DNA of 32,000 bases from Candidatus Saccharimonadota bacterium (GCA_041661045.1 JBAZVE010000001.1:330001-362000), one strand, 5' to 3'; counted from the stretch's first letter, positions 3,882 through 18,077 are shown. Program-made: numbers and translations. Notes: generated from the sequence alone by a model not told the origin.

Positions 3882-5569
3882 TCCGCCTCCGGGGCTGCCG
3901 TGATCTCCGGGGCCTCCGGGGCTGCCGTGCCGGTGACGCGTTCGATTTCACTCAAACGAGTGACTCCGCGGAGCACCTTGAGCGCACCGTCCTCCTGCAT
4001 GGTGAGCATGCCTTGGGCGCGGAGCAGTTCCATGAGCGCCGTGGTGGATTTCTCCTCCAAAATGGCGTCCTTGAGCTGAGGAGTGTTCACAAAGACCTCT
4101 GAGACACAAACCTGGCCCAAAAAGCCCGTATTGGAACATTTTTCACAACCGGGAGCGCTGGGGAGCGTGGCCGGAACGGAAAGTTGCAGGGAAGGGTCCA
4201 CTTTTTGAATTTGCCCGATGGTAGCCTGCAAGAAATCGCGCTCGGACTGGGTGATGGGCTTTTGCTCGGCGCAGAAACTGCAGATTTTGCGAACCAAGCG
4301 TTGGGCCAAAACCACGCTGAGCGCCGGGGCGATCATGAAGGGTTTGAGCCCAATGTTGAGCAGTCGCGGCACGGTTTCGATGGCGCTGTTGGTGTGCAAG
4401 GTGCTGAGCAAAATGTGTCCGGTGAGGGCGGCCTGAGCGGCGGTCTCGGCCGTGTCCAAGTCGCGGATTTCCCCGATCATCACAATGTCCGGGTCCTGAC
4501 GCAAAATGGCGCGAAGGCCTGAGGCGAAACTGTAGCCCCGTTTCTCGTTGATTTGACTCTGCGTCACCCCACTCAAATGGTATTCAATGGGATCTTCCAG
4601 GGTGATTATTTTGCTTTCCGGTTGATTGAACGCCGTGAGCATGGAATAGAGCGTGGTGGTTTTTCCGGATCCCGTTGGCCCCGTGACCAAAATCATTCCG
4701 TTTGAAATCTCAAGCGCCTGTTTGAGCATCTTGAGATTGTGGCCCTCAAAACCCAGCTCCTCAAGCGAGAGGCTTTTTTTGTTGGAATCTAAAAGTCGAC
4801 ATACAAAACTTTCGCCGTACTCGGTTGGAATGGAAGAAACACGGACATCGATTTTGCGATCGTTCACCGGGAAGTCGTAACGGCCGTCCTGCGGGACATT
4901 GGTGATGTTGAGTCGCATGCCCGCCTTGTATTTGAGCTGATTGCTGAGGTAAGCGTAGGTTTGCAGATCGAGTTCGAGCACTTGTTGAAGCACTCCGTCG
5001 ATTCGGAATCGCACCACCACCGCTTTTTCCTCGGGTTGATAGTGAATGTCGGAAGCGCCGGTTTTGAGAGCGCCGATGTTTAAAAAATTGAGAGCTTCCT
5101 CCGCCGTGACCGATTGAATTTTTTCTCGCAAGGCTCCCAGATTTTCCACTTCCGCCTGATACGATTCGATCTTGGCTTCATCAATGATGTTCTTTGTTTC
5201 AATGGGACTTGGGCCCTCGTTTTTGTAGAGCTTCAGTGCTTCCCGCAGTCCACTTTCACTGGCCAAATTGACATTGATGGCGTAACCCTCTTCCTTGAGT
5301 TTCTTGATGAGGGCCTGGGTCTCCGGGCTTGTGGGATGCGCCAAGGCGAGTCGCAGCTTTTTCCCCACTTTGAAGAAGGGGATCACCAAAGCCTCCGCGG
5401 CCTGCTTCCCGTCGATCGTTTTGAGGTGATCCGGGTTGATGTGTATCCGCGCAATGTCGATGTAGGTCATGCCCATTTTTTGGGCTCTTTCCTCCGCTGA
5501 TCGCTCCTCAAAATCACGGTTGATGACCGTGAGTTGGTTTTCGGAAGTGATGAAGGATTGGTCGCTCAT
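3863..5569 (-). CDS. pilB: Type IV pilus / type II secretion ATPase (PilB/GspE family)
   Basis: N-terminal T2SSE_N-like domain, Walker A VTGPTGSGKTTTLYS, Asp/His boxes (IMIGEIRD, LTGHILLSTLHTN) and a tetracysteine cluster CSFC...CEKC. Confidence 0.85.
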   Translation of the reverse strand: MSDQSFITSENQLTVINRDFEERSAEERAQKMGMTYIDIARIHINPDHLKTIDGKQAAEALVIPFFKVGKKLRLALAHPTSPETQALIKKLKEEGYAINVNLASESGLREALKLYKNEGPSPIETKNIIDEAKIESYQAEVENLGALREKIQSVTAEEALNFLNIGALKTGASDIHYQPEEKAVVVRFRIDGVLQQVLELDLQTYAYLSNQLKYKAGMRLNITNVPQDGRYDFPVNDRKIDVRVSSIPTEYGESFVCRLLDSNKKSLSLEELGFEGHNLKMLKQALEISNGMILVTGPTGSGKTTTLYSMLTAFNQPESKIITLEDPIEYHLSGVTQSQINEKRGYSFASGLRAILRQDPDIVMIGEIRDLDTAETAAQAALTGHILLSTLHTNSAIETVPRLLNIGLKPFMIAPALSVVLAQRLVRKICSFCAEQKPITQSERDFLQATIGQIQKVDPSLQLSVPATLPSAPGCEKCSNTGFLGQVCVSEVFVNTPQLKDAILEEKSTTALMELLRAQGMLTMQEDGALKVLRGVTRLSEIERVTGTAAPEAPEITAAPEADQSTAA

Positions 5570-5573
5570 AGCT

Positions 5574-5626
5574 CAGACGCATTGATTTAATCTGTTTATT
5601 ATAGCAGAAAATGCGTCTGTTTTGAA
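5574..5626 (-). promoter_or_regulatory. Putative pilB promoter (TTCAAA-17-TATAAT) bracketed by a 10-bp inverted repeat
   Basis: On the minus strand the -35 is the complement of 5621-5626 and the -10 TATAAT is the complement of 5598-5603. Inverted repeat CAGACGCATT (5574-5583) and AATGCGTCTG (5610-5619). Confidence 0.5.
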
Positions 5627-5646: not shown

Positions 5647-6942
5647 TTAGGAGTGCTTCACGGCATCCACAATTTGCTGAGCTTCTTCCTTGGAAATGCC
5701 CTCCACTTGCATGAAGTCCTTGACCGAAAGTCCCACGAGCTGTGGCACCTGTTCGAGGTTCACGGCAACGAGTTTTTCCTTGATTTCGTCGGCAAGTTCC
5801 AATTCGGTCACCATTTTTACCACGACTTCTTTGGGTGCGGCGGCTTCGGTCGGAGCTCCCGCTGGAGCTTTGGATCTTTTGCCGCTGCCTGAAGTGCTGC
5901 TGGTGCTTGCGGGTTCGGTGGTGTCTAGAATGTCGATTTCCCAACCTGTGAGATGAGAAGCGAGACGAACATTTTGTCCACTTTTACCGATGGCGAGCGC
6001 CCGTTGATCTTGGGTCACAAAGACCTTTGCCAAGTGAGCGGCTTCATCGAGTTCTACTTTGGAAATTTTTGCGGGCTTCAGGGATTCGGCGATGTACTTT
6101 TGCGCGTCCTCGCTCCAAGGGATGATGTCGATGCGTTCTCCGGCGAGTTCGTGCGTTACATTTTGCACGCGTACTCCGTTTTGCCCCACACAGGCTCCGA
6201 TGGGATCCACTTGAGGATCGCTGGAGGCTACGGCCACCTTACAACGCACTCCGGGTTCGCGAGCCACTCCTTTGATCATGACGGTTCCCGCTTTCACTTC
6301 CGGAATTTCCAGTTCCATCAGCTTTTCTACGAGCTTTGGATGGGTTCGAGAAATGAGGAGCTGAGGCCCCTTGGTGGTTTTGATGACTTTATCGAGGTAG
6401 AGCTTGATGCGTTGACCTCCATAGTACTGCTCTGTTGGGATTTGTTCGCGCGCGGGCAAGAGTGCCGTGGTGCCTCCCAATTCTACATACACTTGATTGT
6501 TGTCCACACGGTGAATGAGTGCGTTGACCAACTCGTTTTCTCGGTCTTTGAAGAGCTCGTACATGTAATCGCGTTCCGCCTCTTGGATCCGTTGAATGAT
6601 GACTTGTTTGGCGGCTTGTGCGGCAATGCGGCCGTAAGACATTGGGGTCACTTCCATGCGAACCACTTCTTCAAGCTTGATGTTTTTGTTGAGTTTTCGC
6701 GCGTCTTCCAGAGTGATGTCGGAATCGGGGTCTTCGATTTTATCCACCACTTTTTTAACGATGAAAATCGTCACACTCTCGGTTTTTGGGTCGATTTCCA
6801 CTTCGATGTTCTGCTCCTTGTTTCCGTAATCTTTTCGGTACGCGGTGCGCAGGGCCGCCTTCACGATGTCCATGAGGATTTCCTCGGGAAGGTTCTTTTC
6901 GTTGCAGAGCTGACGGACGGCGGCCATAAATTGTTGATGCAT
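5647..6942 (-). CDS. nusA: Transcription termination/antitermination factor NusA
   Basis: N-terminal domain, S1 and two KH regions (IGACVGQNGVRVQNV, ALAIGKSGQNVRLA), plus a C-terminal helix-hairpin-helix-like extension. Confidence 0.9.
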   Translation of the reverse strand: MHQQFMAAVRQLCNEKNLPEEILMDIVKAALRTAYRKDYGNKEQNIEVEIDPKTESVTIFIVKKVVDKIEDPDSDITLEDARKLNKNIKLEEVVRMEVTPMSYGRIAAQAAKQVIIQRIQEAERDYMYELFKDRENELVNALIHRVDNNQVYVELGGTTALLPAREQIPTEQYYGGQRIKLYLDKVIKTTKGPQLLISRTHPKLVEKLMELEIPEVKAGTVMIKGVAREPGVRCKVAVASSDPQVDPIGACVGQNGVRVQNVTHELAGERIDIIPWSEDAQKYIAESLKPAKISKVELDEAAHLAKVFVTQDQRALAIGKSGQNVRLASHLTGWEIDILDTTEPASTSSTSGSGKRSKAPAGAPTEAAAPKEVVVKMVTELELADEIKEKLVAVNLEQVPQLVGLSVKDFMQVEGISKEEAQQIVDAVKHS

Positions 6943-10008: not shown

Positions 10009-12389
10009 GGATTTAATTTGTTACGAAGTCCGTTCAGCCAAGTGTCCACCACTAAGCTTTTGGGGAGGCTGAATACAAGTTCTCCTTTATTGAAAATAGA
10101 AAAGGCTTGAGCGGTGCCCGTGGCTCCGATCCATAGAGGCTCCACTTTAAATCGGGCACAAATGCCTTCGAAATGGCTGGCGTCATCCTCGGAAACTTCC
10201 ACCACAAAACCTCCGGTTTCGCTGAAAAGCAGGGTGTCGAGAGGGGTTTCACCACACTTGCTCAAATCGATGCTGAGTCCATATTCTCCTTCTCCACGAC
10301 CGCCGGCCATCATCTCCGCCAGCGTGATGGCTAAGCCTCCATCTGAAATGTCGTGACACGCAAGGACCGCGCTGCGGTCCACCGCCATAACCATGGTTCT
10401 GAGTTCCTGTTCCACTTGTTTGAAGTCGGGCTTGGGCACGTTCATTCCCAAAAATCCCAGCTGTTTGTAGTACTCACTTCCGCCCAATTCTTCTTTTCGT
10501 TTTCCGATCAAATAGATTCGGCTTTTGGGCTGCTTGAACTGCATGGTCACCGCTAAATCGGTGTCTTCGATTCGCCCCAAGGTTCCGATGATTGGAGAAG
10601 GTGCGATGCTTCCACTTTGAGAGAAATTGTAGAGGGAGACATTTCCCGAAACCACGGGCACGGGCTCTCCTTTATAATCCAAATGACCCACTCCCTCCAG
10701 CGCTTCCTTGATGCCGCGAATGCTTTCCACGAGTTCCCACATTTGCTCGGGATTTTCGGGATTTCCAAAATTGAGACAGTCGGTGACGGCCCAGGGCGTT
10801 GCCCCGACGGCGGCCACATTGCGCATGCCTTCCACCACGGCGTTCACTCCGGCCCAGTAGGGAGAAATTCTTCCGTAGCGAGGGTTGCTGTCCACACTGA
10901 GTGCGGCGCCCACTTTGTGGATTTCCGGTGCTTCTTCACGGTTGCGGAAGGGCTGGAGCAAGCCTGCGTCCGCCATGCCCGGTTCAAAAACCGTTTGCCC
11001 TTGCACCACTTTGTCGTAGTTCTCAAAAATGGGCAGGCGGGAGGCGATGTTTTCGCTGCCCAAAATTTTAAGGAAATTTTCTTGAAGGGCTTCGGGTGTG
11101 TTTTGAGCGGCCCTTTCCTCTGCGCTTGGCTCGGGAAAATGGCGCTCCGGTTCGGAAAAAGCTCTATCGTACTGCACGCCTTCGGTGACTTGCGCCGCCG
11201 GCGCATCGACTAAAACTTCGTCTCCAAAACGCACTCGATAATTCCCCACTGTCACCTTCCCCACCAAACTGGCGCTGGCTCCCACTGAAACACCGGGGAG
11301 ATCCCATTCTTTATTGTAGTGATCCAAAATTCTTTCTGTCAGCGAGGGGTGGCAAATCCAGCAGAAGCGCTCTTGCGTTTCGGCACAGGCCACCACTGCG
11401 GGGGGCAAATCTTTGGAGGTGGTGTGCACAAGCGCGAGATCAATTTCCGCTCCAAGTCCCGCTCGCTCCACTTGTTCCACGGAGGCACACACAATGCCGC
11501 CGGCGCCCATATCCTTGAAGCTCACTTTGTCGAGGTCGCCCGATTCTTGCAGTTTTTTAAAGAGGGTATAGGTGGACTCCGCGATGTGGCGCTCGAGGAA
11601 GGGATTGGGCTCTTGCACCGCGCCTTTGTTCGCCTCCTTGTCTTCTTCTTTGAGCTGGAGCGAGGCGAAAGCGGCACCGCCCATTCCGGATTGATCCGTG
11701 GGTTTTCCAACCACAATAATATCCCAGCCCACTGCATCCGGGGGAACAAAGGAATGAATGATTTCGTCTTCCCGTAATGCCCCCAGACAAACCACATTCA
11801 CCAAACAATTGTCGTTGAAGGATTCGTCAAAATAAGTGTCTCCCGCAAGATTGGGAACTCCCAGTGGATTTCCGTAGCCCGCAATTCCCTCCACGACTCC
11901 GTTGGCGATTTGTCTACTCAGGGTTCTGTCTATTTGTCCAAACCGCAGCGGATCGGCCACGGCCACCGCGCGGCCTCCCATCACAATAATGTCCCGCACC
12001 ATTCCTCCAATTCCGGTTGCGGCGCCTTCAAAAGGCACCACTTGCGAGGGGTGATTGTGCGATTCGTGACCCAAAATAACTCCATAACTTCGGTGCTGTT
12101 TATCGAGAGCAAAGTGGACAATTCCGGCGTCTTCTCCAACTCCCAACATGACATTGGATGCCTGAATGGGCAGGGTGCGGAGGTGTTTTTTGCTGCTTCG
12201 GTAGGAGCAGTGTTCGCTTCCTTGAATTCCCCACACAATCGCTTCGGTGAGCGTTGGCGGGCGGGCTAAAATCGCTTGGACCTTTCTTGCTTCCTCCGGT
12301 GTGAGTCCAATTTTATTTTCAGAAAGCACGCGCAAAATTTCCTCGTCCGACATGGCGGCAAAATCGAGACCATTTGAGGGGGAAGCCAT
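10005..12389 (-). CDS. purL: FGAM synthase subunit PurL
   Basis: 794 aa. PurL motifs SEHCSYRS, GHESHNHPS and GGAAF, and duplicated PurM-like domains. Confidence 0.92.
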   Translation of the reverse strand: MASPSNGLDFAAMSDEEILRVLSENKIGLTPEEARKVQAILARPPTLTEAIVWGIQGSEHCSYRSSKKHLRTLPIQASNVMLGVGEDAGIVHFALDKQHRSYGVILGHESHNHPSQVVPFEGAATGIGGMVRDIIVMGGRAVAVADPLRFGQIDRTLSRQIANGVVEGIAGYGNPLGVPNLAGDTYFDESFNDNCLVNVVCLGALREDEIIHSFVPPDAVGWDIIVVGKPTDQSGMGGAAFASLQLKEEDKEANKGAVQEPNPFLERHIAESTYTLFKKLQESGDLDKVSFKDMGAGGIVCASVEQVERAGLGAEIDLALVHTTSKDLPPAVVACAETQERFCWICHPSLTERILDHYNKEWDLPGVSVGASASLVGKVTVGNYRVRFGDEVLVDAPAAQVTEGVQYDRAFSEPERHFPEPSAEERAAQNTPEALQENFLKILGSENIASRLPIFENYDKVVQGQTVFEPGMADAGLLQPFRNREEAPEIHKVGAALSVDSNPRYGRISPYWAGVNAVVEGMRNVAAVGATPWAVTDCLNFGNPENPEQMWELVESIRGIKEALEGVGHLDYKGEPVPVVSGNVSLYNFSQSGSIAPSPIIGTLGRIEDTDLAVTMQFKQPKSRIYLIGKRKEELGGSEYYKQLGFLGMNVPKPDFKQVEQELRTMVMAVDRSAVLACHDISDGGLAITLAEMMAGGRGEGEYGLSIDLSKCGETPLDTLLFSETGGFVVEVSEDDASHFEGICARFKVEPLWIGATGTAQAFSIFNKGELVFSLPKSLVVDTWLNGLRNKLNP

Positions 12390-13764: not shown

Positions 13765-14688
13765 ATGACCGATGTGACAACTCTCCAACGCCTGATAACT
13801 CGTTTCCTCGAGCATCTTGAAGTGGGCAAGAATAGATCGTCCAAAACCATCGAGAATTATCATCATTATTTGCAACGCTTTGCGGAGTTTTATGGGGATC
13901 GGGCGATGGCGAATTTGAGCACTTCCGATGTCCATGCCTATCAACTTTTTTTGAATCGTTTTATGGACGCGCGGGAGCATGGTCTGGGGGTGAAGACTCA
14001 AAATTATCACCTGATTGCCCTGCGGGCGTTTTTGAAATATTTGGTGCGGATGGATGAACCGTCTTTGGCGCCGGAGAAAGTCGATCTTAAAAAAATTCCC
14101 GAACGCAGTGTGGATTTTTTATCACGCGAGGAAGTGGAACGGTTGTTTGAAGTGGTGGATTTAGGAAAACGGGGAGGGCTAAGGGACCGGGCGGCGCTGG
14201 AAACTTTGTATTCCACGGGACTGCGCGTTTCGGAATTGGTGGGTTTGAATCGGAGCCAAGTGGATTTGGAGCGGCGGGAATTCACCGTTCGCGGGAAGGG
14301 GAAAAAGCCGCGCATTGTTTTTTTGTCGGAGCGCTGCGTGAAATGGCTTAAGCTTTATTTGGCGGATCGGGCGGATAACTGGGAGCCGGTGTTCATCAGC
14401 TTTGGGCGAAATCGCGAGGGAGAGGAATTGGGGCTTGGCGAAAAGCGGCGGCTCACGGCGTATTCCATTGAGGAAATGGTACGGCGAGCGGGCCGTTTGG
14501 CAGGCATTGGAAAGCGCGTGACGCCCCATTTGCTGAGGCACAGTTTTGCGACGGAGCTGCTGCACAACGGCGCGGACATTCGCAGCGTGCAAGAAATGCT
14601 GGGACATGCTTCCATCACGACCACGCAGATTTACACGCACTCCACGAATGAGCGCTTGCGGGAGGTGCATGAAAAGTTTCATAAGTGA
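13765..14688 (+). CDS. xerC: Tyrosine site-specific recombinase (XerC/XerD family)
   Basis: Catalytic residues lie in TGLRVSEL, GKGKKPR, HLLRHSFAT and GHASITTTQIYTH. Start set at ATG 13765, 6 nt after a TATACT box. The track start at 13747 is the alternative. Confidence 0.85.
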   Translation: MTDVTTLQRLITRFLEHLEVGKNRSSKTIENYHHYLQRFAEFYGDRAMANLSTSDVHAYQLFLNRFMDAREHGLGVKTQNYHLIALRAFLKYLVRMDEPSLAPEKVDLKKIPERSVDFLSREEVERLFEVVDLGKRGGLRDRAALETLYSTGLRVSELVGLNRSQVDLERREFTVRGKGKKPRIVFLSERCVKWLKLYLADRADNWEPVFISFGRNREGEELGLGEKRRLTAYSIEEMVRRAGRLAGIGKRVTPHLLRHSFATELLHNGADIRSVQEMLGHASITTTQIYTHSTNERLREVHEKFHK

Positions 14689-14761
14689 GGGGGGCTTTTG
14701 GCTTGCACTTGCTTGATATCCTTTGCTAGCATGGGAAAGTCTTTTACATTAATTACTTATA
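14689..14761 (+). repeat. Cassette module copy 1 (truncated left part, promoter-like core, shared leader string)
   Basis: GGGGGGCTTTTGGCTTGCACTTGC, then TTGCAC(14703-14708)-18-TAGCAT(14727-14732), then ATTAATTACTTATA (14748-14761). Confidence 0.6.
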
Positions 14762-14768
14762 TTTCATC

Positions 14769-15032
14769 ATGGCGCACAGGCGAATACTTGTGGACGGAGA
14801 AGGGGGATTTAAGGGTCTTCCAACATTTTGGGGCAACCCGGAGCATAATCCTGAGTTTAGGGCGGCTTTTCGTGCGCCTCGCATGCGTGATCCAGAGGAA
14901 GTGCGAAAGTGGCAGGAGGCAAATGCCGGCACAATTCGCGCTAGTCTAATTGAACTTGGGGCTCAATGGGACGCTGAGAGGGATGTGTTTCGTGCGGCAT
15001 TAGTAGAGTCAGAGCGGAAGGCGAAGGGATAA
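14769..15032 (+). CDS. Small hypothetical protein, cassette paralog 1 (87 aa)
   Basis: Shares RI.V[DN]G.GG...P..WG..E.[ND]P[ED][FW], KW.E and a [DE]RKAK[GR] C-terminus with the next ORF. Preceded by the reiterated promoter module. Confidence 0.65.
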   Translation: MAHRRILVDGEGGFKGLPTFWGNPEHNPEFRAAFRAPRMRDPEEVRKWQEANAGTIRASLIELGAQWDAERDVFRAALVESERKAKG

Positions 15033-15128
15033 GACCAGCTTTCTGCTTTGTTCACGATGCTTGAGGAAGGGCCTTTTGGCTTGCACTTGCCTCCTATCCT
15101 TGGTTAGAATCAGAATTAATTACTTATA
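15005..15128 (+). repeat. Cassette module copy 2 (full module)
   Basis: 15005-15084 matches 15429-15508 with 5 mismatches by hand alignment. TTGCAC(15081-15086)-18-TAGAAT(15105-15110), then ATTAATTACTTATA (15115-15128). Confidence 0.65.
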
Positions 15129-15132
15129 ATTT

Positions 15133-15456
15133 ATGGATAAAAAGGAGGAAAAGGAGGAAAAGCTATACTCCGGAGAGCGTGGGGATGTGCCAGGACGAAT
15201 AACTGTGAACGGACATGGCGGGTGTCATGTGCCAAAGGGTTGGGGGCCCATAGAGGCGGATCCCGACTGGATAGCGATGCAAGCGGCGAAGTTGCCGCCC
15301 CTGATAGATTATGATAAATGGTGCGAATACCATGACACCCATGCCGAGGAAGTTGATGCTCGCCTACGGCAGGTTCGTGAGAAATTTCTTCTTGAGGCTC
15401 CGGATCTTCTTGAGGGATTAAGAAAGGCAGAGGCAGATCGGAAGGCGAAGAGATAA
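15133..15456 (+). CDS. Small hypothetical protein, cassette paralog 2 (107 aa)
   Basis: Paralogous to 14769..15032: GRITVNGHGGCHVPKGWGPIEADPDW versus RRILVDGEGGFKGLPTFWGNPEHNPEF. The 3' end and downstream module are near-identical at the DNA level. Confidence 0.65.
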   Translation: MDKKEEKEEKLYSGERGDVPGRITVNGHGGCHVPKGWGPIEADPDWIAMQAAKLPPLIDYDKWCEYHDTHAEEVDARLRQVREKFLLEAPDLLEGLRKAEADRKAKR

Positions 15457-15532
15457 GACCAGCTTTCTGGTTTGTTCATGATGCTTGAGGAAGGGCCTTT
15501 TGGCTTGCTAAAATATGGGTTAATGTTAAAAT
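15429..15532 (+). repeat. Cassette module copy 3 (left part conserved, right part diverged)
   Basis: Same ~80-nt block as copy 2, including hairpin ACCAG-CTTT-CTGGT (15458-15471). Followed by TTGCTA(15505-15510)-16-TAAAAT(15527-15532). Confidence 0.65.
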
Positions 15533-15573
15533 ATGCGCTTAAACCCTAATGAGCTGTCATCGTGAAGACCCCA

Positions 15574-15750
15574 ATGGGACCAAAAGAAGTTCTTGAGCAG
15601 CTGGAGGCGGCTCAAGGTATAAATGGAGACCAGTCAGAGGGGTTTGACTCGTATGCTCCACTGGCTCTGTGTGCGGCTTGGGTTCACCGAGCTGTCTTTG
15701 AGGGGAGTGCTGAGGGGCTTGCCGGATTGGAGCTTAGGCAGAGCCAATAA
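15574..15750 (+). CDS. Short acidic ORF (58 aa), third cassette; possible 5' part of a frameshifted gene
   Basis: ATG at 15574 (GTG at 15562 is the alternative). Product MGPKEVLEQLEAAQGINGDQSEGFDSYAPL... looks protein-like and carries a weak INGD..EGF echo of the paralog motif. It ends 4 codons after a CTT AGG C heptamer. Confidence 0.45.
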   Translation: MGPKEVLEQLEAAQGINGDQSEGFDSYAPLALCAAWVHRAVFEGSAEGLAGLELRQSQ

Positions 15751-16870
15751 GCCCTACAATGAGAATGCGTACAGTCCGGATGAGCTTATTGGGGAGACAC
15801 GGGTGTCAAAAAAATTGTCGGCTGAAATGCAACTGTTTCATTCCATTGGGTGCATTGCGGTGTTTACCGGCGCGGCATGGGTGACGGATATCTCTAATCC
15901 TGAGATCGTTCAAAATGTGGGCTTTTTTGCCGAAGGTGCAAGTCTGGCTTTTGGCATTGGGGGGTATATTAAAGGTTATGGTGACTACATTTACGATGCC
16001 TTCCATTCCACCCGCGTTGGTCCTTCTATCCCTGAGCTTGAAGTGAGATCGCCTTGGACGGGACATGGGCGGTATTCGCTTCCTCTACATAATCCTATTG
16101 TGAGGGGGCCTTTGGGAGATCGGCTTTCTCGTGAAGTGCACTATAAACCCATAGAGGCTCATCTCCAAAGAGAATCATTAACGACCTGGACCAACCCGCG
16201 GAAGGCTTTGCCCACGGAGCCCGATCGGCTTCCTGAGTTGACTTCAAAACTCGACCGATTCCTTGCGGATTTTGAAGAGGCGCTTCATGCTTCCACCAAT
16301 CGTGGCTTAATAGAACACGGGAAGGCTTTGAGAGATGGGGCGGAAGTTTTGAGGGAACTTGGCAAGACGCTTGATGCGGACCCCGACTCGCAGTTGGAAC
16401 AAAAGGCAGCGGTAATGGAAAAATTTGAACTCAAAAGACATCTTCAACAACTGGTTGGGCTTTGCAGGAGGCGGGCGCTTGCCCTTCAACTCATCGAGCG
16501 CTTGAAAACAAAGGGGGAGGTGGCTGTGGACTCCCGTGCTGCCTTTGATGAGGCGAATGTGAAATTGGCGAATTTTCATGGCATTAAACAGAAGACCGGC
16601 TTGCCTGCTGGAGAGGAGAGCTTGCGGGATAGTCTGACTCAGGCAAAAAAGGCCTATTCCGACCTTGTGAGCGGGATCGTTATTCTTATTGAAGAAAGCC
16701 GCAGAGAGCTGGAAGAAGTTTTGAATGCGGAGGGTGAGGGGCGCTTGCTCAGTGAGGAGGAGTTGGATGGAGCGGTTGGGATTGGAGAAACGGCTAAGCG
16801 AATGGGCATGGCGGCGCGAAGGGTGGGGGCGCGGACGGTGGGGACGCGGACGGTGGGGACGCAGAAATAG
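15623..16870 (+). CDS. Hypothetical protein with two hydrophobic segments and a long helical C-terminal region; 5' end uncertain
   Basis: ORF-track frame. The first ~38 codons (R/L/W/C-rich) overlap the 15574 ORF and look non-coding. Real entry may be a +1 shift at 15733-15739, or GTG 15803 (GGGGAG lies 7-12 nt upstream), or ATG 15827. Hydrophobic segments are LFHSIGCIAVFTGAAWV and VGFFAEGASLAFGIGGYI. No family recognised. Confidence 0.55.
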   Translation: METSQRGLTRMLHWLCVRLGFTELSLRGVLRGLPDWSLGRANKPYNENAYSPDELIGETRVSKKLSAEMQLFHSIGCIAVFTGAAWVTDISNPEIVQNVGFFAEGASLAFGIGGYIKGYGDYIYDAFHSTRVGPSIPELEVRSPWTGHGRYSLPLHNPIVRGPLGDRLSREVHYKPIEAHLQRESLTTWTNPRKALPTEPDRLPELTSKLDRFLADFEEALHASTNRGLIEHGKALRDGAEVLRELGKTLDADPDSQLEQKAAVMEKFELKRHLQQLVGLCRRRALALQLIERLKTKGEVAVDSRAAFDEANVKLANFHGIKQKTGLPAGEESLRDSLTQAKKAYSDLVSGIVILIEESRRELEEVLNAEGEGRLLSEEELDGAVGIGETAKRMGMAARRVGARTVGTRTVGTQK

Positions 16871-16906
16871 GATTTGAACATATGGGTTTTTCTTGTCTAT
16901 TCAAAT

Positions 16907-16924
16907 GGTGTGTACGCACTCACC
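16907..16924. promoter_or_regulatory. Imperfect 18-bp palindrome related to the recA palindrome, upstream of the HNH-dgt operon
   Basis: GGTGTGTACGCACTCACC: 7 of 9 arm pairs are complementary, and 14 of 18 positions are identical to the recA site. It lies 4 nt after a TTGAAC-18-TATTCA candidate promoter and 8 nt before a TATTAT box. Confidence 0.4.
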
Positions 16925-16982
16925 TTTTGTGTTATTATCAGGTTAAGCACTGCCAAGTGGGGACCCTTTAACCCCCTCTTTT

Positions 16983-18077
16983 ATGGACTTACAAAATGGT
17001 GAGATTGCGGCGGACTCTGCGCGGATGGCGCGAGCCATCGTGGAGGCCGCCGCGCCGGCGGATCTTTCGGATAAAGATTTATATGCGCGGTGCCAGGAAT
17101 ATGGTCTGAACGCGCGGGTGTGGCGGCGGCGCTTTGCCGGTTTATTGCCCGAGGTGATGCAGCGGGAGCTGCATCGGCGGCGGGGCCACGCGTCCATCTA
17201 CGAGTTTGCGTTTAAACTGGCGGGCATGAGCGGCTCCAGTGTGGACAAGGTTTTGCATTTGGCGGAAAAACTTGAAGATAAACCGGCGCTCCGTGAGCAG
17301 CTCATGAGCGGCTCGCAAGGGTGGTCCAAACTTGAAAAAGTGGCTTACATTGCAACGGCTGAAACGGACAAAGCGTGGGCGGAAAAGGTGGAGGGGATGG
17401 GCACTTACGCGCTGGAAGCTTTCGTTCAGTTGAAGCGGCGGGAGGGGGCCTTTACAGAAAGTGAAACTGTTGACGGGCAAACTCATATGAGTGAGCAGGA
17501 ACATAACTTTCGTACAGAGCAATGGGGTAGTATGAGTTTTCCGGTTTCTCCCGAGGTTGAGAAAAAACTCAGACTCCTCAAGTACCAACTGGAGCGGGAG
17601 AAGGGGGTAACCTTGACCTTCAATGAAGTGTTTCGGGCTCTTTTAGCGCAAGAGGCTGGGGGCGGAGGACAGGCTCAAATGGTTATTCAAGTGTGTCCGG
17701 AGTGTGCGGCGCGAAAAGCGTCCGAGGCTCAGGGCCGCGCGATCCCGGCGGCGGTGAGGAGGGTGCTGCACGCCAAATACAAAGGCTACTGCGGGTTTTC
17801 CGGTTGCGCGCGGCCGGCCACTTCCCTGCACCACACGCGGCGGTTCTCCCTAAACCAGGGGCATGACCCCCAATTCATCGTTCCTCTCTGCAAAGCGCAT
17901 GAGCGCCTGGCGCATTCTGGACTCATCGAAAACGAAGAAGAGCCGCCGGAAAAGTGGCGAGTGCTCGAGGCGGCGGACCGGAGGCATCCCAAATTCTCCA
18001 TCGATCAAAAAGTGCAATCCTTCCGCACAGAAGCTATACTTGGCGCACATCGGGCGCCGCTCACCCCCTCTCCATGA
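16983..18077 (+). CDS. HNH endonuclease with DUF222-like N-terminal domain
   Basis: C-terminal HNH/zinc motif CPEC...CGFSGC...SLHHTRRFS...IVPLCKAHERLAH. The N-terminal region (ASIYEFAFKLAGMSGSSVDKVLHLAEKLEDKPALREQL) resembles DUF222-type HNH proteins. Confidence 0.8.
   Translation: MDLQNGEIAADSARMARAIVEAAAPADLSDKDLYARCQEYGLNARVWRRRFAGLLPEVMQRELHRRRGHASIYEFAFKLAGMSGSSVDKVLHLAEKLEDKPALREQLMSGSQGWSKLEKVAYIATAETDKAWAEKVEGMGTYALEAFVQLKRREGAFTESETVDGQTHMSEQEHNFRTEQWGSMSFPVSPEVEKKLRLLKYQLEREKGVTLTFNEVFRALLAQEAGGGGQAQMVIQVCPECAARKASEAQGRAIPAAVRRVLHAKYKGYCGFSGCARPATSLHHTRRFSLNQGHDPQFIVPLCKAHERLAHSGLIENEEEPPEKWRVLEAADRRHPKFSIDQKVQSFRTEAILGAHRAPLTPSP

Follow-up and report, generated by a model that had tools for sequence, protein, structure and literature searches.

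Small genes that stand in a row directly behind a gene for a tyrosine recombinase, and that are bounded by the same short repeat, raise the question whether the recombinase runs them as a cassette array. We addressed this question for positions 14689 to 16870 of a 32,000-nt window (the whole stretch of DNA that was analysed, JBAZVE010000001.1:330001-362000; positions are counted from its first letter) from a Peribacteria genome of the candidate phyla radiation (CPR). An initial annotation, made from the sequence alone, had described three self-contained cassettes at this place, with a reiterated terminator-promoter module and a new family of small proteins. The feature is real but ordinary: the locus represents an accessory islet within an insertion hot spot of the whole lineage, straight after the stop codon of the housekeeping gene xer, and it contains a tandem-duplicated, fast-diverging ORFan of a rare family, present as the two genes orf87 and orf107. 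On balance we consider it probable that a whole unit was duplicated in tandem within this hot-spot islet, and that its genes diverged rapidly while its flanks were kept alike.

Repeated flanks and diverged gene bodies

An 80-nt direct repeat (15005-15084 and 15429-15508, 5 mismatches, 94% identity in the repeat search) covers the last 9 codons and the stop codon of each small open reading frame (ORF), followed by 53 nt, exactly as initially annotated. The repeat copy that had been noticed straight after the recombinase stop codon was recovered as a 47-nt repeat (14691-14737 and 15069-15115, 81%), which starts 2-3 nt past this stop. A leader repeat of 20 nt was found at 14748-14767 and 15115-15134 (90%), and the 14-nt leader string ATTAATTACTTATA, for which common occurrence in units 1 and 2 had been claimed, is indeed present twice, compared with 0.05 copies expected. 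The 15-nt core GGSCTTTTGGCTTGC has exactly three copies in the 32 kb (14692, 15070 and 15494); other matches need 3 mismatches, and no further copy exists in the window or in another stretch of the same genome (L088).

The products of orf87 and orf107 are homologous over their full length (BLASTP E=4e-6, 29% identity), as expected from the proposed paralogy. A sliding comparison of units 1 and 2 at the DNA level revealed sharp steps in identity, with values of 87-97% for core and 3′ block, 90% for the leader, ~74% for the promoter-like stretch and 40-60% for the gene body. Within the bodies, 13 of the 19 identical residues (M and W excluded) have identical codons, versus 6.5 expected from the codon usage of the genome (P=0.002), and the shared codons include the rare ATA (5%), CTA (2%) and TTA (6%). 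Third positions differ at a rate of 0.53, compared with 0.73±0.05 in shuffled pairings; dS amounts to 0.71 (NG86) or 0.92 (LWL85) and dN to 0.72-0.79, corresponding to a dN/dS of ~0.8-1.1. The shared rare codons and a dS below saturation argue for genuine duplicates at the DNA level. By this evidence the bodies of orf87 and orf107 are tandem duplicates which diverged at a dN/dS of about 1 and whose frames are still open; the frame of the ORF scores best in both genes, at weak codon-usage scores (-0.07 for orf87 and 0.05 for orf107).

Between the flanks of the two units, 5 of the 80 nt of the 3′ block differ, including 2 of the 53 nt in its non-coding part, as does 1 of the 16 nt in the core. 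The core-plus-promoter block differs at 19% of its positions, the non-coding flanks overall are 4-26% diverged, and in the last conserved codons all five synonymous choices are identical. This similarity of the flanks far exceeds that of the synonymous sites in the genes, and simple duplication alone does not account for the difference. It is implausible that purifying selection acts on nearly each position of a 53-nt spacer. Gene conversion or recurrent unequal exchange is the most likely cause of the homogenised flanks, and in the promoter and leader selection may have contributed. With flanks that are better conserved than the synonymous sites of the genes between them, the locus offers an unusually clean case for gene conversion or the reuse of regulatory modules in reduced genomes.

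An assembly artefact behind the array is very unlikely. An independently assembled Logan contig of SRR18595301 (L001) contains the same 10.6 kb around the array with 100% identity. Collapse or expansion of repeats is very unlikely since the longest exact stretch that the repeat copies have in common is 29 nt and the units differ internally.

Homology to related genomes ends at the xer stop codon (14688) and restarts at ~16869-16898; therefore, the interval 14689-16870 chosen in the initial annotation corresponds almost exactly to a strain-specific insertion, a 2.2-kb island between the xer stop codon and a conserved element upstream of an HNH nuclease gene. Relatives had been proposed for a comparison of copy numbers in the array; however, none of them carries any of the island ORFs, as judged by tblastn and by a profile search of all six-frame ORFs. 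In one relative (L003), the distance from the xer stop to the conserved element is only ~30 nt. The features of the island and its borders are listed in Table 1.

Table 1. Features of the islet behind xer and of its borders, given as positions in the window
Feature	Position	Strand	Remarks
Xer-type tyrosine recombinase, 313 aa	13747..14688	+	left border, outside the island; Pfam Phage_integrase and SAM-like N domain
Island	14689..16870	+	delimited by comparison with relatives
Core copy 1 (16 nt, GGGGCTTTTGGCTTGC) and promoter-like TTGCAC-18-TAGCAT	14691..14737	+	47-nt direct repeat with 15069-15115
Leader repeat copy 1, ATTAATTACTTATATTTCAT	14748..14767	+	20-nt repeat, 90%; ends just 5′ of the orf87 ATG
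orf87, small helical protein (model) of a rare uncharacterised family	14769..15032	+	paralog of orf107
80-nt block copy 1: last 9 codons and stop of orf87, degenerate hairpin, core copy 2	15005..15084	+	direct repeat, 94%
Promoter-like TTGCAC-18-TAGAAT and leader copy 2	15085..15134	+	-35-like hexamer from 15081, within the preceding core
orf107, diverged tandem paralog; N-terminal extension with 9-nt tandem repeat AAAAGGAGG	15133..15456	+	NCBI hypothetical protein WC777_01505
80-nt block copy 2: 3′ end of orf107, intact hairpin ACCAG-CTTT-CTGGT (15458-15471), core copy 3	15429..15508	+	direct repeat
Promoter-like TTGCTA-16-TAAAAT with TG extension, upstream of unit 3	15505..15532	+	starts within core copy 3
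orf62, possible small gene	15562..15750	+	unrelated to orf87 and orf107
ORFan with two predicted N-terminal hydrophobic helices and a long helical region	15803..16870	+	start uncertain
Conserved hairpin, T-run and extended -10, tied to the HNH gene	16898..16988	+	right border of the island; aligned in L002, L003, L004, L005, L014 and L044

Putative expression signals, unit 3 and the encoded proteins

All three annotated pairs of -35/-10-like hexamers are present at the expected places (14703-14732, 15081-15110 and 15505-15532, in the order of the units), but only the pair of unit 3 passes a sigma-70 scan (9/12 matches, TG present). A similar arrangement of the type TTGnnn-17-TAGAnT can be read upstream of tRNA-Gln (L088) and tRNA-Ser, which fits the module as a candidate for a lineage-typical promoter. 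The short hairpin, to which a function as terminator had been ascribed, is intact in the second 80-nt block, whereas a C/C mismatch breaks it in the first one; the stem comprises 5 bp (7 bp with G-U in copy 2). No terminator on the + strand was called in either block, and the folding energies of the blocks were those of shuffled sequences, both for RNA (z -0.6 to +1.1) and for single-stranded DNA on both strands (z -0.9 to +1.4). The search for structured RNAs gave no Rfam match at E<=1, the scan of metagenome DNA no match to the 80-nt block, and a viral scan with a 17-nt core pattern three single hits which we judged to be due to chance.

Unit 3 shares only the 16-nt core with units 1 and 2. 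Instead of three cassettes, the islet comprises two homologous units and unrelated cargo. No significant similarity to orf87 or orf107 was detected for orf62, and this includes the string GINGDQSEGF, in which a weak echo of the small proteins had been seen. The ORF with this string was also thought to continue into a protein with two transmembrane segments; it stops at 15750 in frame 1, and the membrane/helical ORF, which extends to 16870, lies in frame 2. The codon-usage score of orf62 is weakly positive in its own frame (frame 1); close to two GGGG runs (15690-15710), at ~15650-15720, the coding signal shifts to frame 2. Because of this change of frame, unit 3 may represent either two genes or a single frameshifted gene (~430 aa). 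The start of the large ORFan can be placed at GTG 15803 (355 aa), ATG 15653 (405 aa) or ATG 15623 (415 aa), and gene callers differ between 355 aa and 405 aa. Among 5.8 billion proteins, this ORFan hits only itself, and the AlphaFold2 (AF2) model of its 355-aa version is all helical with a pLDDT of 42.8, too poor for a structure search. Near its 3′ end, a 15-nt tandem repeat (GGTGGGGACGCGGAC, 2.7 copies, 96%, 16822-16862) encodes the C-terminal GARTVGTRTVGT.

The claim of a new small-protein family was confirmed. For the products of orf87 and orf107, nothing significant was found in Pfam, PHROGs, PADLOC, NCBIfam, PDB sequences or, by Foldseek, among PDB structures. An exhaustive HMMER search of 1.84 billion representatives and a word-index search with a four-sequence profile together returned only 5 credible members, to which scans of viral and metagenome proteins added no further one. 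The member P0004 (93 aa) is 55-57% identical to orf87 and is found on contigs that carry FG-GAP, HEAT-repeat and AAA_16 genes. A second relative, P0005 (129 aa, WC777_06290, L088:6938-7428), is encoded in the same genome as the window, as the first gene in a series of ORFans that starts 27 nt behind a tRNA-Gln gene; no second copy of the tRNA 3′ end was found downstream of P0005. P0007 and P0010 (67-69 aa) are located on an ORFan-dense scaffold of 367 kb (L091, GROS21-1 scaffold_3). With only NUDIX and phosphatase matches in a PHROG scan, this scaffold is possibly a jumbo phage or some other large mobile element. P0007 and P0010 are translationally coupled to a DUF1848 gene; NUDIX, HNH and R2K genes are present on the scaffold, and TnpB in L089 (L089-L091).

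All members have the motif P-E-x-D-P-E-F-x-x-A-F-R-x-P-x-x-x-D-P-D-x-W in common, followed by a helix. In the AF2 model of orf87 (pLDDT 72.6), a disordered N-terminus precedes a confident helix-turn-long-helix, formed by helices 42-51 and 53-86. The small proteins are probably cytoplasmic helical proteins that carry the conserved motif. As P0004, P0005 and P0007/P0010 share this motif across differing contexts, the family is real and coding, uncharacterised, very small and patchy. Its patchy distribution, the position of one member beside a tRNA gene and the fast divergence suggest a mobile-element-derived or conflict-related accessory factor. A motif as strongly conserved as PE-DPEF--AFR-P---DPD in such different genetic contexts makes this tiny family worth attention. 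In the protein database, orf87 has only JGI and Logan sources, not NCBI, and orf107 is represented in NCBI under the locus tag given in Table 1.

The 9-nt tandem repeat AAAAGGAGG of orf107 (2.6 copies, 15140-15162) lies within the N-terminal extension (KKEEKEEK) and holds two perfect Shine-Dalgarno-like AAGGAGG strings, without an in-frame start at a usable distance. From an in-frame GTG at 15187, an 89-aa product would result, whose N-terminus aligns with that of orf87.

The insertion site behind xer and the origin of the array

The recombinase upstream of the array reaches 248 bits with the XerD model of NCBIfam, 238 bits with XerC and 229 bits with archaeal XerA (cut-off 220). With the integron-integrase model TIGR02249, it scores 152 bits at a cut-off of 265, in two split stretches. 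Orthologues with 52-85% identity and conserved synteny occur in 80 CPR genomes. By sequence and context, the recombinase is a conserved chromosomal housekeeping Xer, and a role for it in the array is not supported.

In the ~17 closest Peribacteria genomes the order ftsE-xer-(HNH)-dGTPase-membrane protein is kept, whereas the DNA directly 3′ of the xer stop has nothing in common between genomes. The gap from xer to the next conserved gene varies from ~30 nt (L003) to 3.3 kb (L018) and contains unrelated genes on either strand, among them ORFans, genes for secreted acidic proteins and, in L018, a diversity-generating retroelement (DGR) together with an MNT/HEPN-like pair. The space between xer and HNH/dGTPase is a lineage-wide hot spot for accessory DNA, in which Xer and HNH are incidental neighbours and not actors. 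The suggestion of an accessory, recombination-prone locus is in agreement with these data, as relatives keep synteny around 0-3.3 kb of unrelated DNA at the same spot. The junction from xer to dGTPase is reproducible across Peribacteria as a site for ORFans, a DGR, a toxin-antitoxin-like pair and HNH, and could serve as a marker of strain-level variation in CPR bacteria. A published description of a Peribacteria genome attributes strain variation mostly to small indels in large proteins and gives no BLAST hits for 29% of the genes; it reports nothing on the present locus (PMC4736985).

The HNH gene (364 aa) is present in only about half of the relatives, always together with the same upstream element, composed of TTGTCY, a hairpin GGTGAG-N6-CTCACC, a T-run and TGTGCTAAnAT; in the window it occupies 16898-16945, within the interval of Table 1. 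This constant association suggests that the HNH gene is itself mobile, as a unit equipped with a terminator/promoter composite of its own.

Further observations were made at the same hot spot in other genomes. The DGR of L018, a related Patescibacteria metagenome-assembled genome, is intact (L018:4214-7520), with an RVT_1 reverse transcriptase (4214-5179, - strand), bAvd (5100-5504), a template repeat (TR, 5504-5597) and a variable repeat (VR, 5949-6042) in the 3′-terminal part of a DUF4256 target gene; most of the TR/VR mismatches (18) affect T residues in copy 1, corresponding to A on the strand of the gene. The MNT/HEPN-like pair of this genome consists of a nucleotidyltransferase and an NTase-substrate-binding gene. 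In L009, an 82-nt copy (87%) of an internal segment of its own xer is found 820 nt downstream, inside the variable gap (L009:10740-10821 and 11560-11641); it is the scar of an illegitimate or partial duplication. On the other side of xer, a gap of ~1.7-1.9 kb to ftsE exists in L004, L006, L007, L009 and L011-L018 and is absent in the window, L003 and L008, which is a second presence/absence polymorphism. More distant Peribacteria (L019-L046) have the order dGTPase(-) xer(+) ftsE(+), compared with ftsE(-) xer(+) ... dGTPase(+) in the window and L003-L018. As the flanks of xer are swapped between the clades, an inversion with breakpoints on both sides of xer is to be assumed in the history of the clade. 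Elsewhere in the genome of the window, in an 83-nt direct repeat (90%, L088:9048-9130 and 10057-10139), the 3′ end of a DUF2200 gene is present twice, in a 36-aa fragment and in a 116-aa gene, with a 213-aa ORFan between the copies. The layout is that of the window, with a repeated gene 3′ end bracketing an inserted ORFan.

For the array itself we propose the following course of events. One transcription unit, consisting of core, promoter-like stretch, short leader, small gene and 3′ block, would have been duplicated in tandem, most likely because copies of the 16-nt core, with their flanks, underwent unequal homologous recombination. The gene bodies would then have diverged fast and almost neutrally at the protein level with their reading frames open, and the flanks would have been kept near-identical, most likely by gene conversion or repeated recombination helped by a degree of purifying selection on promoter and leader. 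For each small gene, transcription would probably start at a separate promoter and give a very short leader devoid of a Shine-Dalgarno sequence. The core-plus-promoter behind orf107 would now drive the unrelated cargo, i.e. orf62 and the membrane/helical ORFan. A foreign origin of the islet fits the use of rare codons and the weak codon-usage scores. In comparison, the initial annotation had assumed the repeated duplication of a unit with its own terminator and promoter. That units 1 and 2 go back to one duplicated unit is supported by the flanks and the shared rare codons, but the terminator is weak and not conserved.

This weakness of the terminator is also one of several points that weigh against the proposed course of events. 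The promoter-like pairs of units 1 and 2 fail the sigma-70 scan (8-9/12 matches, 18-nt spacers, poor -35). The presence of three cores implies that two of them already flanked the ancestral gene, for which plain duplication is no explanation. Within the family, orf87 and orf107 are the least similar pair (30%, compared with 57% and 45% to P0004), which could mean separate acquisition, and a dN/dS near 1 could mean that one copy is decaying.

Separate acquisition is the essence of an alternative which we regard as unlikely, although it accounts for several features of the locus. Promoter-early stem-loop (PeSL) cassettes were described from the hyperplastic regions of T4-type phages as reiterated composites of stop codon, stem-loop, promoter and start codon upstream of ORFans, which mediate duplication, replacement and the formation of mini-circles by homologous recombination (Arbiol et al. 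2010, PMC2839356; Comeau et al. 2014, PMC4122927). A mobile regulatory cassette of this kind would be a recombination-active module that captures and shuffles ORFans at the hot spot, possibly via excised mini-circles, and orf87 and orf107 would have been inserted separately. The arrangement of stop codon, small stem-loop, -35/-10 and start codon matches that of the phage elements (PMC2839356; PMC4122927). Moreover, n cassettes are bounded by n+1 cores, and the core is the only element common to all three junctions. Similarity is much higher between the flanks than between the gene bodies, no other two members of the family are as dissimilar at the protein level as the tandem pair, and the site is a hyperplastic region full of ORFans. 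What argues against separate insertion is the combination of shared rare codons and unsaturated dS, by which the bodies themselves are shown to be DNA-level duplicates. In addition, the three module copies are the only ones in the 32-kb window and L088, no copy was found in metagenome and viral collections (apart from the three chance hits), the stem-loop is neither stable nor conserved, and the promoters are far from the consensus.

Somewhat less probable still is a decay of the islet to non-functional DNA, i.e. the remnant of an old insertion whose ORFs are past selection and whose flanks result from a recent partial gene conversion without function. Such a remnant would be compatible with the dN/dS of ~0.8-1.1, the weak codon-usage scores, the ambiguous start and frame of unit 3 and the absence of an NCBI source for orf87, which orf107 does have. 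It is difficult to reconcile with ORFs that stayed open over 87 and 107 codons despite ~0.7-0.9 substitutions per site and with a motif which is kept in both of them and strongly conserved in homologues from unrelated contexts. The confident helical core of the AF2 model and the best-scoring ORF frames of both genes point in the same direction.

Rather improbable, in our opinion, is a more general role of the module as bacterial counterpart of the PeSL, in which it would be a recombination-active expression scaffold for the capture, duplication and rapid diversification of small conflict-related genes behind xer, with the motif proteins as fast-evolving payload, for example phage/host interaction factors.

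Finally, a site-specific array run by the adjacent tyrosine recombinase, either integron-like or of the Xer/dif type, with the 16-nt core as crossover site, is very improbable and largely refuted: the recombinase gene is located immediately upstream, the same core is found at every cassette boundary, first 2-3 nt past the recombinase stop, and the region is a clade-wide insertion hot spot, but Xer is present in all relatives whatever the cargo, scores below the integron-integrase cut-off and is co-directional with an array whose cassettes carry promoter-like sites of their own, none of the 80 relatives has the core, which also lacks the structure of the known crossover sites described below, and no non-coding motif beside xer is common to the relatives. 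The main use of the present analysis is that this tempting misreading is cleared: the recombinase beside the repeat-bounded small genes is a housekeeping Xer beside a generic hot spot.

Comparison with known systems

Integrons are defined by an IntI-type integrase, which is an Xer-like tyrosine recombinase with an IntI-specific additional segment, by imperfect attC palindromes of 57-141 nt with R″/L″ and L′/R′ cores (RYYYAAC ... GTTRRRY) and by a divergent integrase gene with mostly promoterless cassettes that are transcribed from Pc. The locus resembles them in having a tyrosine recombinase gene beside a one-directional array of short repeat-bounded units. However, its recombinase is a co-directional housekeeping Xer below the IntI cut-off, and its units have their own promoter-like sites. 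The attC check that had been suggested for the inter-cassette repeats was negative, with shuffle-like folding of the blocks, no attC-like hairpin and no R″/R′ pair 45-150 nt apart in 14600-17000; integrons were rejected on these grounds.

Integrative mobile elements exploiting Xer (IMEX) and pdif modules use XerC/D at dif-like sites. These sites have a length of 28-31 nt, with two ~11-nt inverted arms around a 6-8-nt spacer. Like the islet, such elements combine tandem accessory modules, a short repeated boundary site and an Xer recombinase. The core of the islet is in contrast a direct 16-mer without dyad symmetry, with no dyad-symmetric site in or near it and no 11-6-11 inverted repeat in the blocks. 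Dif-like patterns were matched only with 3 mismatches, and none of these matches was in the repeat blocks or beside xer, a test of limited power since the dif consensus of CPR bacteria is not known. No conserved non-coding k-mer was found beside xer in 17 genomes, the top k-mers being ftsE coding sequence, and no switch of GC skew at the locus. A duplicated xer 3′ end as att site was rejected as well, because its local alignment to the blocks was no better than that of shuffles.

DGRs have in common with the islet an imperfect direct repeat (here of 80 nt) that overlaps a gene 3′ end, and a real DGR occupies the same hot spot in L018. The repeat of the islet differs from a TR/VR pair in being mostly non-coding and in its mismatches (T/G, G/T, G/A, C/G, C/T), which are not adenine-specific. 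The pair of L018, with its 18 mismatches at T and with RVT_1 and bAvd nearby, provides a positive control for this test. None of the seven proteins encoded in the island and immediately beside it matched a reverse-transcriptase domain.

Phage morons are self-contained insertions of promoter, gene and terminator. In agreement with them, the islet contains extra genes with promoter-like signals of their own between conserved genes, absent from relatives and with atypical codon usage; unlike morons, it is not in a prophage context and its terminator is unconvincing.

As adjacent homologs on the same strand with common descent evident at the DNA level, orf87 and orf107 belong to the tandem gene duplications. 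In tandem paralogs under concerted evolution by gene conversion or unequal crossing-over, it is usually the flanks that diverge and the coding parts that are homogenised. Repeated flanks and sharp boundaries between near-identical and diverged parts are also seen here. The direction is reversed, since mainly the non-coding flanks of the islet are homogenised and the coding bodies diverge at a dN/dS of ~1.

The PeSL of T4-type phages is by analogy the closest described counterpart in function, and the module may work like one, although we do not file it as such. It is found in a bacterial (CPR) chromosome with three known copies versus ~50 per phage genome, its stem-loop is not stable but weak and broken in one copy, its promoters are far from consensus and the two genes that it flanks are paralogs instead of unrelated genes. 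All three copies lie in a hypervariable region upstream of ORFans. In common with the phage elements, a short non-coding composite, extending from a stop codon via a small stem-loop and a sigma-70-like -35/-10 pair to the next start, is reiterated between small ORFan genes in such a region. As direct repeats, the copies of this module would be possible substrates for homologous recombination, duplication and replacement.

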